A DNA stretch of 64,000 bases. Source: a virus. The notes under the pieces are model-generated. The model searched no databases and was not told where the DNA came from. It saw only the letters and a program-made list of their open reading frames with translations. The translations under genes were made by a program, and so were the position numbers. Position 1 is the first letter of the stretch, and each line of letters begins with the position of its first letter. The stretch is from UHGV virus genome UHGV-0212524; one strand, written 5' to 3'. This document shows, in pieces, positions 30,386 through 62,469 of this stretch.

Positions 30386-30424
30386 CCCTCTCTCCGTTTG
30401 GAGAGAGGGTGTATTTATTTTACG
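30386..30424 (+). terminator. rho-independent terminator
   Basis: CCCCTCTCTCC-GTTT-GGAGAGAGGG hairpin plus T-rich tract. Confidence 0.8.
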
Positions 30425-30461: not shown

Positions 30462-30794
30462 TTGAGGAACAATCTGATGTGGTTAAGTGCTATTCACCGT
30501 GATTTGCCAAAACGTGACGTGTCGTTTACTGTTGATGACGCACCGATCGCGGTAGGCGTCGCGAAATTCGAAAGAATCGAAGAAGGGCAGTTTGTTGTAA
30601 TGGATGGCAACGACAACGAATTTATGTTGTATCATCCAGAAGTGGATACCTCTGAAATTTGTGACGGTGTTCTTTTGTTGTCCTGGCAAAAACCTGAAAC
30701 CAAAGAATGGATGTGGTGTGTTGCTAAACCGACGAATGAAGCCGGAACCGCATACGTGTTTGGGGAAATTTATGTCGAACCAGAACCACACTAA
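30462..30794 (+). CDS. hypothetical protein (110 aa)
   Basis: ORF. Confidence 0.5.
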   Translation: MRNNLMWLSAIHRDLPKRDVSFTVDDAPIAVGVAKFERIEEGQFVVMDGNDNEFMLYHPEVDTSEICDGVLLLSWQKPETKEWMWCVAKPTNEAGTAYVFGEIYVEPEPH

Positions 30795-30895: not shown

Positions 30896-31165
30896 ATGGC
30901 TAAGATTTACATTGTTGAGAAACGTGCGGGTAATGTTCTTTCCTATTACGAAGAAGGTAAACCTGAAAAAGTTAAAACACTCAAACTCGACGGGTATGAA
31001 GTGAAGAGTTTACGCAAGGGTGTGAAGATTACCTTTAAAGGTCTGGTTCGCGCAGGTAACTTACACATTGTTAAGGCCGATGGTACGATGGCTGCGTTAG
31101 CACCTGTCAGTGCTGCGAAAACGACAGCCGGTCGTGGCTGCTACGGTAGCAGTCGTAAGATTTAA
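30896..31165 (+). CDS. hypothetical protein (89 aa)
   Basis: ORF followed by terminator. Confidence 0.5.
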   Translation: MAKIYIVEKRAGNVLSYYEEGKPEKVKTLKLDGYEVKSLRKGVKITFKGLVRAGNLHIVKADGTMAALAPVSAAKTTAGRGCYGSSRKI

Positions 31166-31171
31166 GCAGTG

Positions 31172-31210
31172 CCCCTCTCTCCTAATGGAGAGAGGGTACT
31201 TTTATTTTTC
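31172..31210 (+). terminator. rho-independent terminator
   Basis: CCCCTCTCTCC-TAAT-GGAGAGAGGG hairpin plus T-tract; near-identical stem to 30386. Confidence 0.8.
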
Positions 31211-31223
31211 TTCGAGGTGTGTG

Positions 31224-31712
31224 ATGACAACGGTATTAGTAACAAAGGATTACATTTTAGCTGATCGGTTGGTTGATTACGGCGGCACAGTTAAAGAGCT
31301 TCCTAAATTACACAAATACAAAAACAAATTCGTTGTTTACACTGGGGAACGTGTATTGGACTCGGATCTCTGGAAAACGACGATAATGTCCGGAGCAGAA
31401 AAATATTTGATCGAAGAAAAGCGAACTAAGGTTGAAGAGATATTTAAAGATCTTATCGAAAAAGAACAACTTTTCGATCAGGTTATCATTTTTACAGCTA
31501 AGGAAACACACTGGCTCGGGCTGCTAGAGGGTAAATTTGAATCTCGTGTACTGAATAAAAACACGGTTTGGGCAACGGGTTCGGGTCAAGGTTTTGCTCG
31601 AGCAGCATGGGCAACAGGTATAACCGAAAAGAATATCATTCCCTTAGTAGGTTCGATTGATACAGCTTCATCACAAACGTACGACTTATTTTACAGGAAG
31701 CACTTACGATGA
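31224..31712 (+). CDS. HslV/proteasome-like Ntn-hydrolase candidate (162 aa)
   Basis: Met-Thr-Thr N-terminus (MTTVLVTKDYILADRLV) and ATGSGQGFARAAWA resemble the HslV N-terminal Thr nucleophile and GSGG motif; start placed after the terminator. Confidence 0.4.
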   Translation: MTTVLVTKDYILADRLVDYGGTVKELPKLHKYKNKFVVYTGERVLDSDLWKTTIMSGAEKYLIEEKRTKVEEIFKDLIEKEQLFDQVIIFTAKETHWLGLLEGKFESRVLNKNTVWATGSGQGFARAAWATGITEKNIIPLVGSIDTASSQTYDLFYRKHLR

Positions 31713-32230
31713 AGATAAACGCTGTCTTAATTGGCGATGAAATTTTCGTTAATACAAAAACACAATATCTGTATTACGAAGGTATTACTGTAGTAGACGA
31801 CTATTACAGTAAATACGGTTGGTGGATTCCGACTCCTAACTCTTTACGATTAGAAGAAGCATTAACTGCTGAAGAGAATAAACTGGAAGATGACTGGACT
31901 TATATCAGTTCCGTAATTGACGTCAGTGGTCGAATTAAAGACGTCTACTGGGCTAAAGAGTCAGGGTGGCGTGTTACGCTACACCAATCTACACCAGTAA
32001 GATTGTTGTACGACCACTCGGATAGTTCAGAGTTAGCGTTTACCATTGAGACGCTCTCGGTACGTAAAGATTTGGATAACGTGGGTAAAGGGAAGTGGTC
32101 TATTGAACGCGTAGAGGAGATTCTCGGCCACTTTAAAGCCAACAACAAATTTAAACGTTGGTGTACATTACCTGAGTTAGTAGAAGAGTTGAAAAAGCGG
32201 GATTGCAAGCCGCTACCTTTTAACCCGTAG
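31709..32230 (+). CDS. hypothetical protein (173 aa)
   Basis: ORF. Confidence 0.5.
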   Translation: MKINAVLIGDEIFVNTKTQYLYYEGITVVDDYYSKYGWWIPTPNSLRLEEALTAEENKLEDDWTYISSVIDVSGRIKDVYWAKESGWRVTLHQSTPVRLLYDHSDSSELAFTIETLSVRKDLDNVGKGKWSIERVEEILGHFKANNKFKRWCTLPELVEELKKRDCKPLPFNP

Positions 32231-32276
32231 TCTTTTTTACAACTGCGGCTATTTTAATGATTAGGAGAATATAGAG

Positions 32277-32672
32277 ATGACCGCAATATTAGGTATAATG
32301 TCAAGAAAAGCTGATGTCATTGAGACATTTATTGACCAATATAACAACTCACCGTATACGCGTCTTAGATTGCGTATACCCCAGAATAGCACAGAATGGG
32401 TTCGTTGGTTTAGGATTTGGGATAAAACAATAAGTAAAATTGATCCGTTATTTAGAATTAGGGTTGAACCTGCTTATTGGATTGTAATGGAAATTTCGCT
32501 ACTACGTATTATCGAAAAACGTCCTATTGACACCATGACGATGTTTGGGAAAGATACGTATAAAATGTTGACCAACGGTTTTGTAGGTAATGGAGAACAC
32601 ACCTTGTATCAGGCAATGCTGGAAATGTGTTTGTTCGATTTAGTTACTTACGAATTGGGGATTTCAAAATGA
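32277..32672 (+). CDS. hypothetical protein (131 aa)
   Basis: ORF. Confidence 0.5.
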   Translation: MTAILGIMSRKADVIETFIDQYNNSPYTRLRLRIPQNSTEWVRWFRIWDKTISKIDPLFRIRVEPAYWIVMEISLLRIIEKRPIDTMTMFGKDTYKMLTNGFVGNGEHTLYQAMLEMCLFDLVTYELGISK

Positions 32673-33133
32673 ATTGCTTCGAATCTAAAGAAATTGTTGA
32701 GTTGTTTAAACAGCGTGAGAAAACCACTTTCCGTGACTTGTACGATTCCGATTACCGTCCTCTGTTTGCGGTATTGCTGAAACTGGATAAAGAACCCGAA
32801 ATTGCATTAGCAGAAGTTCAACATCACCACATCAGTTTCGTATTAACTGAAAACAAGGAACGTTGGGTAGATGACATACTGGGTCGTATTGCGCTTTTGG
32901 AAACACCACATCGTTGGGAAGTGGTTATTCAGAAATCGCTGTTCCCACGGGAAGATATTTTCAACAATTATCGTCCGAAACAGTATTACAACCACGACGG
33001 GTCGCCAAAACGTGCTTTCCTGGCACCGCAACACTTCGTAACCTACGTAACGTTGCGTTATAAAGACACCGTGGTGCCGTTTGACACCTACCTGGAAATG
33101 CGTGAGATAATTTTAGGGAAGAGTCCGTCATGA
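32669..33133 (+). CDS. hypothetical protein
   Basis: ORF; ATGA start/stop overlap with preceding gene. Confidence 0.5.
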   Translation: MNCFESKEIVELFKQREKTTFRDLYDSDYRPLFAVLLKLDKEPEIALAEVQHHHISFVLTENKERWVDDILGRIALLETPHRWEVVIQKSLFPREDIFNNYRPKQYYNHDGSPKRAFLAPQHFVTYVTLRYKDTVVPFDTYLEMREIILGKSPS

Positions 33134-33612
33134 TTCAATTTTCTGTTGGCGCAGAAAGACTGGCGTCGTTTAAAGAACGTGCTCAGTCTGCAATCAAAAA
33201 CGGTTACATTGAGAAAGGTGTTCGTGATACCTGTAAACTAATCAACGACCATCCGCACCTGGCGACAATGTGGAGCTGTGAAGGTCACGGTATGTATTCT
33301 AAGTCACCTGGAAATCTGCATATCGTTTTTGCAACAGACGCTATTGGAAGTCAGATTCCAATGCAGGTTATGACCGAACTTGCAAAATCAGATTTACCGA
33401 ATTTCTGGAATCTTAGTTTGTGTCGTCTTTATATACCAGACGCATACACGGATTTGGTATATCTTGAACCTGACTATGGATTAAATACCGATGACACGTC
33501 TTACTGGTCTTGGAAAATCGGATACATGTGCTTGATTAATCGGCCTGTATTAATTGAAGCACGTCAAGCTCTTTACAAAGCATTTCACACAGTATTAGTT
33601 GAGAATAAATAA
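33130..33612 (+). CDS. hypothetical protein (160 aa)
   Basis: ORF with ATGA overlap. Confidence 0.5.
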   Translation: MIQFSVGAERLASFKERAQSAIKNGYIEKGVRDTCKLINDHPHLATMWSCEGHGMYSKSPGNLHIVFATDAIGSQIPMQVMTELAKSDLPNFWNLSLCRLYIPDAYTDLVYLEPDYGLNTDDTSYWSWKIGYMCLINRPVLIEARQALYKAFHTVLVENK

Positions 33613-34837: not shown

Positions 34838-35036
34838 CGGATATATCATTTCAGCAATCGTTTCAACTGCGTTGATTGTAGCGATGTTGATGTTCTACGT
34901 TAAGACGTCTGACGAATCACGTAGAGACTCCCTTTATCGTGAATGTATGTCAGGCACTACTGTAGATAATCCACGCTACGCTGAATTAGTAATGGCGTGT
35001 ACGGAATACGCTAATCGAATGGGAGGAGGGAAATGA
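34824..35036 (+). CDS. small membrane protein (70 aa)
   Basis: hydrophobic segment ISAIVSTALIVAMLMFYV. Confidence 0.45.
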   Translation: MKINDGYIISAIVSTALIVAMLMFYVKTSDESRRDSLYRECMSGTTVDNPRYAELVMACTEYANRMGGGK

Positions 35037-35230
35037 AAATTTGGTTGCCGATTCTAGTTTTTATCGTTATTGCAGGGGCACTCGCAAGTGCTGAGTTAGA
35101 TAGCCGTACTTTAGAAACGAAACGTGAATTGTACCAGGACTGTATAAAGGATTATACACCGGGTACAGAGCTTCATGCACAAGCTGTAAAAAGTTGTGCG
35201 TTGATGGCTGAATCGCAGACTCGCTCCTAA
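35033..35230 (+). CDS. small secreted/membrane protein (65 aa)
   Basis: N-terminal MKIWLPILVFIVIAGALASA. Confidence 0.45.
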   Translation: MKIWLPILVFIVIAGALASAELDSRTLETKRELYQDCIKDYTPGTELHAQAVKSCALMAESQTRS

Positions 35231-35604
35231 TGCGTATCTGGACGCTACAACTCGCTAAGTGGCGGTTAGCTAAGCAGAAAGGATTTCACGCGGTGGATAT
35301 CACCGTGAAGTCAGGTCGAAAGGAACTCGCCCCCGACTGGGATTTCCTAATGGCGTATAAATCTTCTGTCAAGGACGCTGCCGCTGAACGTGAGTACACG
35401 ATAAAGTATTTGTACAAACTCGAACGACTGTTAGATACTGATGCCGAAGTTTTAGTGTCGTTACTCAGACACGATGACTTGGTTTTGATGTGTTATTGTC
35501 CCGCAGGTAAGTTTTGTCATCGACACTTACTGGCGAACAAACTTCAAGAAGTGGGAATGATGTTTGGTATCGACGTTGTGTTGTGTGGAGAATTAACCGA
35601 ATAA
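35230..35604 (+). CDS. DUF488-like protein candidate (124 aa)
   Basis: CYCPAGKFCHRHLLA motif resembles the CxC...CHR signature I associate with DUF488/YeaO-like proteins; from memory only. Confidence 0.3.
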   Translation: MRIWTLQLAKWRLAKQKGFHAVDITVKSGRKELAPDWDFLMAYKSSVKDAAAEREYTIKYLYKLERLLDTDAEVLVSLLRHDDLVLMCYCPAGKFCHRHLLANKLQEVGMMFGIDVVLCGELTE

Positions 35605-59723: not shown

Positions 59724-60265
59724 TCTTCTTCTCCAACCATACCTAATTCTTGCAGCAAGCCAAAATCAACCAACTGGAAGGTTTCAGAGAGATCGTTTGA
59801 CCACACCACGTTTGCAATGTCGCGTTCTTCATCCGTTAACTGTGGTAACACATTTTCGTTGAACGTCTGATGCTCTACGTAATAAGCATCGTAGATAGAC
59901 GTAGAACGCAAGCAACGGATTGGCAGACGCGGGAAAGACACCGCTAATGCAGCAATAGATGCGCTACTCGGATTCTCCGCAGAATAACGAAGCAATTCGA
60001 TCTTGTGGCGTGGGTAATCCAGTACGCGTTGTTCGAAACCCGGATTACGTTTTTCGATTTCCACAACGGACTCATGGCCTGTCTCTGTACAGTAAACGGG
60101 AATCATCACGTTTAGCCCGTACTTAATCAACAGAGGTTTAATCTCATCTGTAAAGTCTTCACCAGGGATAATGGCGTGAACGTTATAGAGTTTGTGTTTG
60201 CGCAGAAAACGCTCAACCAGGTGGAGTTTACGCTTCGTAAAATTGTGGATCAGAATTGATTTCAT
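59699..60265 (-). CDS. hypothetical protein (about 188 aa)
   Basis: minus-strand ORF; ATG at 60265 preferred (GAGG RBS) over 60289. Confidence 0.5.
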   Translation of the reverse strand: MKSILIHNFTKRKLHLVERFLRKHKLYNVHAIIPGEDFTDEIKPLLIKYGLNVMIPVYCTETGHESVVEIEKRNPGFEQRVLDYPRHKIELLRYSAENPSSASIAALAVSFPRLPIRCLRSTSIYDAYYVEHQTFNENVLPQLTDEERDIANVVWSNDLSETFQLVDFGLLQELGMVGEEECLLLTKA

Positions 60266-61562
60266 TATTTGCCTCAGTAGGTTGTGCATTTAACGCACGT
60301 TTAGCTTGCTCACGCTCACGCGTACATTTCGGACAGTAACAAACAGACGAATCGTGCAGTGACGATGCGTGGACGGTGCCTGTACGTTGACGCCAGTATT
60401 CTGCCGCCATCAGTTTTGCGGTCGTCCAACCACATTGACGTCGTTCAGCGTGGTACGCCTTACGGTCTTCCAGTGTCCCTTCACCGTTTTCGTAGGAAGC
60501 AGCTGCACAGCTCCCACAACCGTGTTTCATCGGACAACCTAAGCACGTTTCAGGATAGTTGGTGTATTGCGTCTGAATCTCTTCCAGCAGTTTCCCGCCG
60601 TCTAAGCTAACAAACTCACGACCGACTAACTCAAACACCGCAGAGCGTGACGTTACCGTTGACATGAATCGGTTACAACCATACACCTTACGGTCAAAAC
60701 CTAAACAAGTCATAAACGTCAACGTCCCACAGAACGGACGTAAACGTTCAGGGTTATAACGGTGCGTGTCGTCGTACAGCAGTTTATCACGCCAATCTGG
60801 GTCCCAAATCTGACGGAAATCCAGACCTTCAGGAATGATGTGGGACAACACGTTACGTGGATTGGTGTGCAGCCCTTTCTCAATCCAATAATCCATCACC
60901 TCGATCATCTGCAACGCAATATCCGTTGCCATGCTCCGTGGAAGGATATCTTCGTACGTCACGTTACCCGAAATCGTACCACCACCCGCAATATCGATTA
61001 ACGACTTCATACTCGCCGCGTAATGCGGGAGGGTTTCGGTTGTAAAGGTTGCCTTGATACCCAGTTCAGCAATACCCACTTCTTTTAAGTAGTTATAGCC
61101 ACGAACAGCGGCTTCGTAAGAACCCTGACGCGTCGTGGTAAAGATACGATAACGGTCATGGACTTCTGGCAGCCCGTCGATAGACACACCGATGGAGAGT
61201 TTGTCTTTCCAACGCTCGACGATCTCACGGTTTAACGGACGGTCTAACAACGTCCCGTTCGTGGAGATACTGAACATATACGGTCGATTATGCTCCTTAC
61301 ACAACTGTTCTGCGGTTTCAAACGCCGCTAACAGCAGTTTCGGTTGCATAAAAGGTTCGCCGCCGATGATATCAATAATGACGTCGATGTTCGGAATATC
61401 TTTATCACGCTCAAAACAGGCGTGTAAGAAATCCACGATATCCGCCGCTTTGTTATTACGCGGATACTTACGTTCGTAACAATACTCACAGTCTAAGTTA
61501 CAAGACAGGTTCGTTACCACCTGGTAAGTACGTTGTGAACGTGGTGCTTCATTATTGCTCAT
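60228..61562 (-). CDS. radical SAM enzyme with C-terminal SPASM-like Cys cluster (444 aa), peptide maturase candidate (ScfB/anSME-like)
   Basis: N-terminal CNLDCEYC (CxxxCxxC), IIGGEPFMQ (GGEP), C-terminal TCLGCPMKHGCGSC plus further Cys (QCGW, VCYCPKC). Confidence 0.8.
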   Translation of the reverse strand: MSNNEAPRSQRTYQVVTNLSCNLDCEYCYERKYPRNNKAADIVDFLHACFERDKDIPNIDVIIDIIGGEPFMQPKLLLAAFETAEQLCKEHNRPYMFSISTNGTLLDRPLNREIVERWKDKLSIGVSIDGLPEVHDRYRIFTTTRQGSYEAAVRGYNYLKEVGIAELGIKATFTTETLPHYAASMKSLIDIAGGGTISGNVTYEDILPRSMATDIALQMIEVMDYWIEKGLHTNPRNVLSHIIPEGLDFRQIWDPDWRDKLLYDDTHRYNPERLRPFCGTLTFMTCLGFDRKVYGCNRFMSTVTSRSAVFELVGREFVSLDGGKLLEEIQTQYTNYPETCLGCPMKHGCGSCAAASYENGEGTLEDRKAYHAERRQCGWTTAKLMAAEYWRQRTGTVHASSLHDSSVCYCPKCTREREQAKRALNAQPTEANNEINSDPQFYEA

Positions 61563-62469
61563 CTTTGCTTATCCTTTTACGCTCTGCATAAATCACGCGT
61601 TTAATGTACTCGTAAGCACCTACCCCGATAGAGCAAGCAAGCTGATTGCACCCACCGTTTAAGATAGCCGGTGCATTCTGAAGCTGATGTTCTGTTCCAT
61701 CTGCGTTCAAATACAACTCTTCGCTACAGACATTACACTCGTTTTCGAAAATCTTGCTGACAGACACGCCGCACGATTCTCCGGTTTGGACGTTCAGCCG
61801 TTCCATATTCTCCTGAATCTTTAAATAACCATAAACGAAGTTCATGATGTGATCGGGAGACAACGGTTTTGGCATTTGGGCATCAAACATCAGAGAAAAC
61901 GCACGGGGACGATAGTGGTACATCGCACGATGTAAATCCACAATATCTTCATACCAGCGCTTATCGGCTAACTGGTCACGCGTAATCACAGCCCAGGTTT
62001 GGAAGTTATCGAGTTCGTATAACGCTTCCAGTGCTTCGTGGCTATCCTCTTCAATAAAGCGCATAAAAGGGCGCTCAGAACGTTTGTAGCCATCAATTGA
62101 TACAAACACATGCTCAAAGTCTTTTAGCAGCGTAAGATGCGATTTACGCAGTTTTAAGCCGTTGGTATACAAGTGATGCTCAAGGTGCGGATGAGACACT
62201 TTCAGTTCGTTAACGAAATCCTCAATCTTACGTTGGACGAGTAGCGGTTCACCACCCGTCCAATGTATTTCCTTAATAGCTGGATTCTCTTGTAGTAATT
62301 CCAGGATACGTTCGCGTTGAAAAGCACGAGACGAATCTTCACGATTCATGTAGTAGGCTCCACCGCAGAAACTACAGTCTAGGTTACACTTAGACGTCGT
62401 AACTACGGACAATATAGTGGGTTTATCGTACAACTTCGTCGAGATCCTGGATTCCACATTGTCTATCAT
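61552..62469 (-). CDS. second radical SAM enzyme (305 aa) with C-terminal auxiliary Cys cluster
   Basis: KCNLDCSFCGG (CxxxCxxC), IHWTGGEPLLV (GGEP), C-terminal CGVSVS..ECNVCSE..GGCNQLACSIG. Confidence 0.75.
   Translation of the reverse strand: MIDNVESRISTKLYDKPTILSVVTTSKCNLDCSFCGGAYYMNREDSSRAFQRERILELLQENPAIKEIHWTGGEPLLVQRKIEDFVNELKVSHPHLEHHLYTNGLKLRKSHLTLLKDFEHVFVSIDGYKRSERPFMRFIEEDSHEALEALYELDNFQTWAVITRDQLADKRWYEDIVDLHRAMYHYRPRAFSLMFDAQMPKPLSPDHIMNFVYGYLKIQENMERLNVQTGESCGVSVSKIFENECNVCSEELYLNADGTEHQLQNAPAILNGGCNQLACSIGVGAYEYIKRVIYAERKRISKDEQ

Follow-up and report, generated by a model that had tools for sequence, protein, structure and literature searches.

A predicted N-terminal-threonine peptidase from a divergent phage branch of the HslV/proteasome superfamily, encoded with a conserved partner gene in a Salmonella/Enterobacter jumbo phage

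Results

The peptidase gene and its surroundings

The window, meaning the whole stretch of 64,000 nucleotides analysed from the virus genome UHGV-0212524, carries on its plus strand an open reading frame at 31224..31712, with an ATG at 31224, a TGA stop at 31710-31712 and a length of 162 codons. Its 162-aa product reads MTTVLVTKDYILADR...ATGSGQGFARAAWATG...YRKHLR and is described here as a predicted, divergent N-terminal-threonine peptidase of the HslV/proteasome family (an 'A-type' phage HslV-like protein). An earlier note on this DNA had pointed to a Met-Thr-Thr start and a GSGQGFARAAW motif in this protein, and both are present, the latter at residues 119-129 with its G119-S-G121 codons at 31578-31586.

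The mechanically called ORF runs back to a GTG at 31110. This codon was rejected as the start, since it would make the gene overlap both the preceding gene (30896..31165) and a hairpin, and the homologues start with MTT. The real start is placed at 31224 because a ribosome-binding site, GAGGTG, can be read directly at 31214..31219 (plus strand), 4 nt 5' of the ATG, because close homologues begin with MTT, and because the family profile aligns from residue 1 onwards in most of its 71 representative matches. The hairpin, at 31173..31196 on the plus strand, is terminator-like, with a G+C-rich stem followed by a T-run, and ends 27 nt 5' of the start codon. A second terminator-like hairpin with an identical 10-bp stem (CCCTCTCTCC / GGAGAGAGGG) and T-run lies at 30386-30409, so that the pair (30386-30409 and 31173-31196) flanks the genes 30462..30794 and 30896..31165 upstream of the HslV-like gene. 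The stem has two matches in the window against none expected in shuffles, and the repeated hairpin may be an intergenic regulatory or RNA-stability element.

At its 3' end, the HslV-like gene shares an ATGA junction with a partner gene at 31709..32230 (plus strand), whose ATG overlaps the stop codon and whose 173-aa product belongs to phrog_25529. Most genes of the surrounding block are uncharacterised; its dTMP kinase, GNAT and Dam methylase genes lie upstream. Directly after the partner gene, about 396 bp (window 32270-32665) are missing from the complete relative NZ_CP134650.1; this stretch, in which lie an orphan ORF of 131 aa without family match (32277..32672) and a good sigma-70-like promoter match (32272-32299), looks like a small recent insertion. 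The adjacent genes 32627-33133 and 33130-33612 both match phrog_7413, a family of unknown function, which suggests a tandem duplication. Near the 3' end of the window, two adjacent minus-strand genes (60228-62469) correspond to genes annotated as radical-SAM in the NZ_CP134650.1 relative and in Derbicus.

The source is a jumbo phage of Salmonella/Enterobacter. No near-identical phage was found in the INPHARED phage collection, and the close homologues of the HslV-like protein (71-95% identity) are encoded on contigs of about 222-226 kb assembled from Salmonella enterica isolates and from metagenomes. The complete relative NZ_CP134650.1 (222,441 bp) was deposited as an Enterobacter ludwigii 'plasmid', with a gull as its source, and aligns with the window in blocks that are 86-98%, mostly 95-98%, identical. 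Circular contigs of about 222-226 kb with the same jumbo-phage genome turn up repeatedly in isolate assemblies of S. enterica serovars (proteins P0015, P0028 and P0043); together with the E. ludwigii 'plasmid', they suggest that the phage persists in a carrier or pseudolysogenic state and is not a contaminant. More distantly, the neighbours of the HslV-like gene are syntenic with those in Erwinia, Cronobacter and Salmonella jumbo phages of the genera Machinavirus and Derbicusvirus. The peptidase gene also appears to have been exchanged between lineages by recombination: in an IMG/VR contig of 220,786 bp (L014:10001-11004) that is otherwise a close relative, the HslV-like allele is 74% identical with a dS of 1.3-3.8, whereas the adjacent partner gene is 91% identical with a dS of about 0.4.

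Homology to HslV and the proteasome

Single-sequence and curated-model searches give little for this protein. It has no match to the Pfam Proteasome family PF00227 even at E <= 10, and phmmer with the window protein alone finds nothing in the PDB; among the 56 members of the wider family, PF00227 matches one, at 6.8e-5. The NCBIfam HslV equivalogs TIGR03692 and NF003964 match neither the window protein nor its Machinavirus and Derbicusvirus homologues at E <= 0.1. The phrog_1040 'peptidase HslV family' profile matches residues 1-159 at E 5.6e-6, a membership that rests on a PHROG profile match, for which there is no curated threshold.

Family profiles make the relationship much clearer. An exhaustive profile search of 1.84 billion representatives yielded 71 clusters, and a further homologue search with a broad alignment added almost no sequences. 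With a 27-sequence profile of the close family, the best PDB match is T. brucei HslV at E 0.017. With the 56-sequence family profile, T. brucei HslV again ranks first, now at E 2.2e-10, followed by HslV of E. coli, T. maritima, H. influenzae, Bacillus and S. aureus (5e-5 to 4e-4) and then by proteasome beta subunits. These profile-PDB alignments pair MTT with MTT, the family A-D-R with the HslV G-D17-G, the family Lys with Lys33, the family Gly with the GFAGG segment, and GSG with GSG. The resemblance to HslV exceeds chance.

Catalytic residues and selection

All of the residues expected of a MEROPS T1 peptidase, that is, a Thr or Ser nucleophile after Met, Asp17, Lys33, the oxyanion Gly and the GSG loop, are found in the alignment, and the corresponding codons can be located on the plus strand of the window. 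The predicted nucleophile is Thr2 (31227..31229), which would become Thr1 after Met removal and aligns with Thr1 of E. coli HslV; across the family (n=56), this position is Thr in 46 sequences and Ser in the other 10. Outside the close Salmonella-lineage set, the N-terminus is MT in 66 of 80 sequences and MS in 10. Asp14 (31263..31265) aligns with Asp17 of HslV and the proteasome and is invariant (56/56), and Lys28 (31305..31307), the Lys33 equivalent, is kept in 52/56. In the profile alignment, Gly41 (31344..31346; 52/56) is the putative counterpart of the oxyanion-hole Gly in HslV GFAGG (proteasome Gly47). Finally, Gly119-Ser120-Gly121 (31578..31586) aligns with the HslV GSG motif, its Ser matching proteasome Ser129; G119 is found in 56/56, S or T at position 120 in 54/56, and G121 in 54/56. 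The family also has a typical C-terminal D-x-x-Y-R-x-x-L motif.

The catalytic positions are all kept in every close variant (71-95% identity). Pairwise dN/dS values of 0.05-0.34 indicate purifying selection on the HslV-like gene in a lineage that, as described below, has no HslU.

Predicted fold

An AlphaFold2 (AF2) model built from an alignment of 56 family sequences that included no bona fide HslV reached a pLDDT of 94.3 and a pTM of 0.88, with the strand and helix order of a proteasome fold; it supersedes a run with a shallow 27-sequence alignment, which was unusable (pLDDT 47). The model has the four-layer alpha-beta-beta-alpha architecture of a proteasome-type Ntn fold (MEROPS T1 superfamily), with helix H1 at 48-61 and helix H2 at 64-80. 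A Foldseek search of the PDB with this model places HslV and BPH at the top (E 6e-7, TM 0.65).

The earlier note had called the gene a phage HslV/proteasome-like Ntn hydrolase with an N-terminal Thr nucleophile, had proposed a profile comparison with HslV and proteasome beta, and had named a missing T1 fold or missing Thr1/Lys33 equivalents as counting against its reading. The comparison put solved HslV structures on top, the fold and both equivalents are present, and Thr2 aligns with HslV Thr1 with Thr or Ser in 56/56 sequences. As far as fold and superfamily are concerned, profile, AF2 and Foldseek evidence thus bear out the proposal. The protein is not, however, an HslV orthologue, because the curated models miss it and the structural scores fit a distant branch.

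A conserved partner gene

A homologous partner gene lies directly 3' of the HslV-like gene in at least nine lineages, namely the window lineage, Machinavirus, Derbicusvirus and six metagenomic lineages, and the ATGA junction is found in 6 of 10 pairs inspected. Comparison by hhalign links the two PHROGs that contain partners (94.8%, E 4.9e-8). Sequence searches of Pfam and the PDB return nothing for the partner, and hhalign detects no homology between partner and peptidase, either locally or globally. When the AF2 peptidase model was searched against BFVD with Foldseek, a 182-aa Derbicus protein appeared at rank 45 (probability 0.99, TM 0.46). This protein can be identified with the partner gp124, since gp124 is the sole 182-aa CDS in Derbicus, and on this structural match the partner may have a degenerate Ntn-like fold.

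HslU is encoded by sister phages and was probably lost here

In Machinavirus, Derbicusvirus and two metagenomic lineages, a gene for a protein of 578-730 aa lies about 2-2.5 kb downstream of the HslV-like gene (L002:8965-10701, L001:8832-10880, L003:8808-10871, L005:8575-10308, L020:12757-14949 and L032:12744-14489). Judged by its phmmer matches to HslU of S. aureus (E 3e-46) and E. coli (E 3e-41), this protein is a genuine HslU homologue, whose AAA+ module is interrupted at the I-domain position by an insertion of about 285 aa or more. The co-location of the HslV-like and HslU genes is synteny and does not in itself prove an interaction. Derbicus encodes the window-type HslV-like protein only, with no second paralogue, and the window-type protein is therefore the only candidate peptidase for the Derbicus HslU.

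In E. coli, HslV is activated by the hydrophobic C-terminal tail of HslU (...RFIL). This tail is absent from all four phage HslU homologues examined, three of which end in ...TLRKN or ...TLRKSLRG, so that both the mode of docking and the ability to use host HslU are uncertain.

HslU encoded alongside, as expected of HslV proper, is thus found in the sister genera and missing from the window lineage. No HslU was detected in the window by tblastn at E <= 10, and neither the window nor the 222-kb NZ_CP134650.1 contains an HslU or classical AAA+ gene; a scan of NZ_CP134650.1 for the classical Walker-A motif gave convincing matches in two proteins only, one a dTMP kinase and the other SbcC-like. 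The syntenic HslU site (34838..35229, plus strand) is occupied by two small ORFs, and a maximum-sensitivity HMM search found no HslU remnant in it. We infer that the window lineage lost the phage HslU and kept the peptidase and its partner. In both ORFs a hydrophobic N-terminus precedes a shared Y-x-(E/D)-C ... C motif, and their products resemble a pair of paralogous single-pass membrane proteins. A DUF488-N3a protein (window 35230-35604), encoded immediately 3' of the HslU position, is kept in all three phage groups.

A second HslV-like paralogue

Outside the window, NZ_CP134650.1 encodes a second HslV-like paralogue of 166 aa (MTTIVFDGKTLACDGQVT...) at 88426..88926 (L007:38426-38926). It matches phrog_1040 at E 1.9e-35, as against 5.6e-6 for the window protein, and is the more canonical of the two; BLASTP finds no similarity between them. 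The second type is widespread, occurring in SPN3US-like and Erwinia jumbo phages and in small phages of 40-49 kb, including Klebsiella and E. coli phages.

Discussion

Several known systems can be set beside the window protein. It is 14-23% identical to bacterial HslV (ClpQ; E. coli, T. maritima; PDB 1NED, 1M4Y; MEROPS T1B), from which it differs in that its gene has no adjacent hslU, is followed by the conserved 173-aa partner gene and encodes a C-terminal D-x-x-Y-R-x-x-L motif of its own. The phage proteins of phrog_1040 (SPN3US, Caitlin, Klebsiella phage IME346) are similar in size (about 160-180 aa), MTT start and catalytic motifs, although the window protein matches their profile weakly. 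Its direct homologues, with 25-31% identity and the same synteny, are Phobos gp123, CR5_121, Derbicus gp123 and pSal-SNUABM-04 ORF116, the first three of which are annotated in RefSeq as 'peptidase HslV family'. For pSal-SNUABM-04, the authors reported HslV at ORF 1 and ORF 116 and stated that no HslU is encoded (PMC7823757); ORF 121, annotated as 'putative DnaA', is however an HslU homologue. Phage-associated proteasome homologues (PPH, AAH, CPH) were described by Fuchs, Alva and Lupas in 2021 (PMC8665760). PPH are about 140 aa long and lack helix H2 (PMC8665760), whereas the window protein has 162 aa and predicted H1 and H2 helices. An HslU homologue of Erwinia phage RAY has been located in the phage nucleus (bioRxiv 10.1101/2023.02.24.529968). 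We found no functional study of any phage HslV-like protein in the literature searched. The window gene therefore joins a kind that is already annotated but uncharacterised; what is added is that the partner gene is conserved and that one lineage has lost the phage HslU.

On this evidence, the gene product is probably a catalytically competent N-terminal-threonine peptidase of the proteasome/HslV superfamily (MEROPS T1; in the grouping of Fuchs et al. 2021, PMC8665760, the compact HslV/BPH-like 'group I'), belonging to a divergent, phage-specific branch and acting in a non-structural role in the infected cell. The peptidase and its translationally coupled 173-aa partner would be made from one transcript. 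Host methionine aminopeptidase would then remove Met1, as expected because Thr is a permitted P1' residue for this enzyme, as it is in E. coli HslV. The exposed Thr nucleophile would act with Asp14 and Lys28 (Asp17 and Lys33 in HslV numbering), with Gly41 forming the oxyanion hole and with the Gly119-Ser-Gly121 loop. A self-compartmentalised ring particle is probably assembled, possibly with the partner included. The ancestral role of the branch may have been that of a proteolytic core for a phage HslU-type unfoldase, kept in Machinavirus, Derbicusvirus and two metagenomic lineages, and its role in the infected cell would most plausibly be the turnover of host or phage regulatory or defence proteins.

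How the peptidase of the window lineage would be fed is a separate matter. It may work free of any ATPase on peptides or unfolded proteins, as proposed for BPH and Anbu, and we put this forward tentatively. Because the window lineage is without HslU and sister phages have their own, it could instead work with a host AAA+ unfoldase such as HslU, the pairing that the earlier note had proposed, and we rate this as only slightly less likely. In one version of the latter, the phage peptidase, alone or together with the partner or the second paralogue, would dock host HslU and either redirect ATP-dependent proteolysis or titrate HslU away from host HslV. Enterobacterial hosts do have hslVU, the gene has remained under purifying selection even though its lineage encodes no unfoldase, and HslV-family genes without an annotated HslU also exist in small 40-49 kb phages. 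The interface argues the other way: HslV binds the C-terminus of HslU through its Lys28, for which the family keeps no conserved counterpart, the register being off by one residue and the position variable, and the different C-terminus of the cognate phage HslU homologues suggests that the interface has been altered. On balance, such a hijacking of host HslU is somewhat unlikely.

A more elaborate model would take the peptidase and its partner as the two components of a phage 'mini-proteasome'. Here the partner would be a degenerate Ntn paralogue without a nucleophile, comparable to an inactive alpha-type or beta-type subunit; the motor of the particle would at first have been a phage HslU, with its giant I-domain and non-canonical C-terminus, and after loss of this unfoldase the particle would act ATPase-free or with captured host HslU, degrading host regulatory or defence proteins. 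We offer this model as speculation that is more probably wrong than right by a wide measure.

The same fold could also serve an Ntn enzyme other than a protease, such as a connectase-like ligase or transpeptidase, or an amidase, with one particular phage or host molecule as its substrate. The best sequence-profile and structure matches are nevertheless HslV, BPH and proteasome beta; the first helix pair, H1/H2, which is missing from connectase (PMC8665760), is present in the model of the window protein; the full proteasome-type set of Thr, Asp, Lys, Gly and GSG loop is retained; and the gene co-occurs with an HslU unfoldase in sister phages. A non-protease function is improbable in the light of these observations.

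Loss of the unfoldase in the window lineage, together with a second paralogue in the relative that has the much stronger HslV-family signal (phrog_1040, E 1.9e-35), could be taken to mean that the window protein has no activity left and is a relic or scaffold, a pseudo-enzyme whose only part is structural, for instance as a subunit for that more canonical paralogue. The catalytic positions are however kept in all close variants and near-invariant across the family, dN/dS is well below 1, and Derbicus has no second paralogue; we consider a relic very unlikely. The earlier note had also suggested a role in virion maturation. Phages do need maturation proteases, and in Machinavirus genes annotated 'prohead core protein protease' come after the HslU gene, but a prohead protease or a virion component is highly improbable here, because NZ_CP134650.1 has a distinct S80 morphogenetic serine protease (prohead protease) gene at another place, Derbicus has its own 'head maturation protease' (gp220), the gene lies in the mostly uncharacterised block downstream of the dTMP kinase, GNAT and Dam methylase genes, and Derbicus gp123 and gp124 fall outside the set annotated as virion structural.

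A catalytically competent peptidase acting in the infected cell is thus the reading we prefer. In practical terms, the gain is better annotation, including the correction concerning HslU in pSal-SNUABM-04, rather than a new kind of system. Large phages commonly carry proteasome-family peptidases as accessory genes, all of them uncharacterised, and the locus offers a clean natural comparison: three sister groups share the peptidase and its partner, two of them keep the phage HslU, and one has lost it while its peptidase stays under selection. Does a phage Thr-peptidase need its own unfoldase, borrow that of the host, or act alone? This question can be tested, and answers to it could reveal which host or phage proteins jumbo phages destroy.
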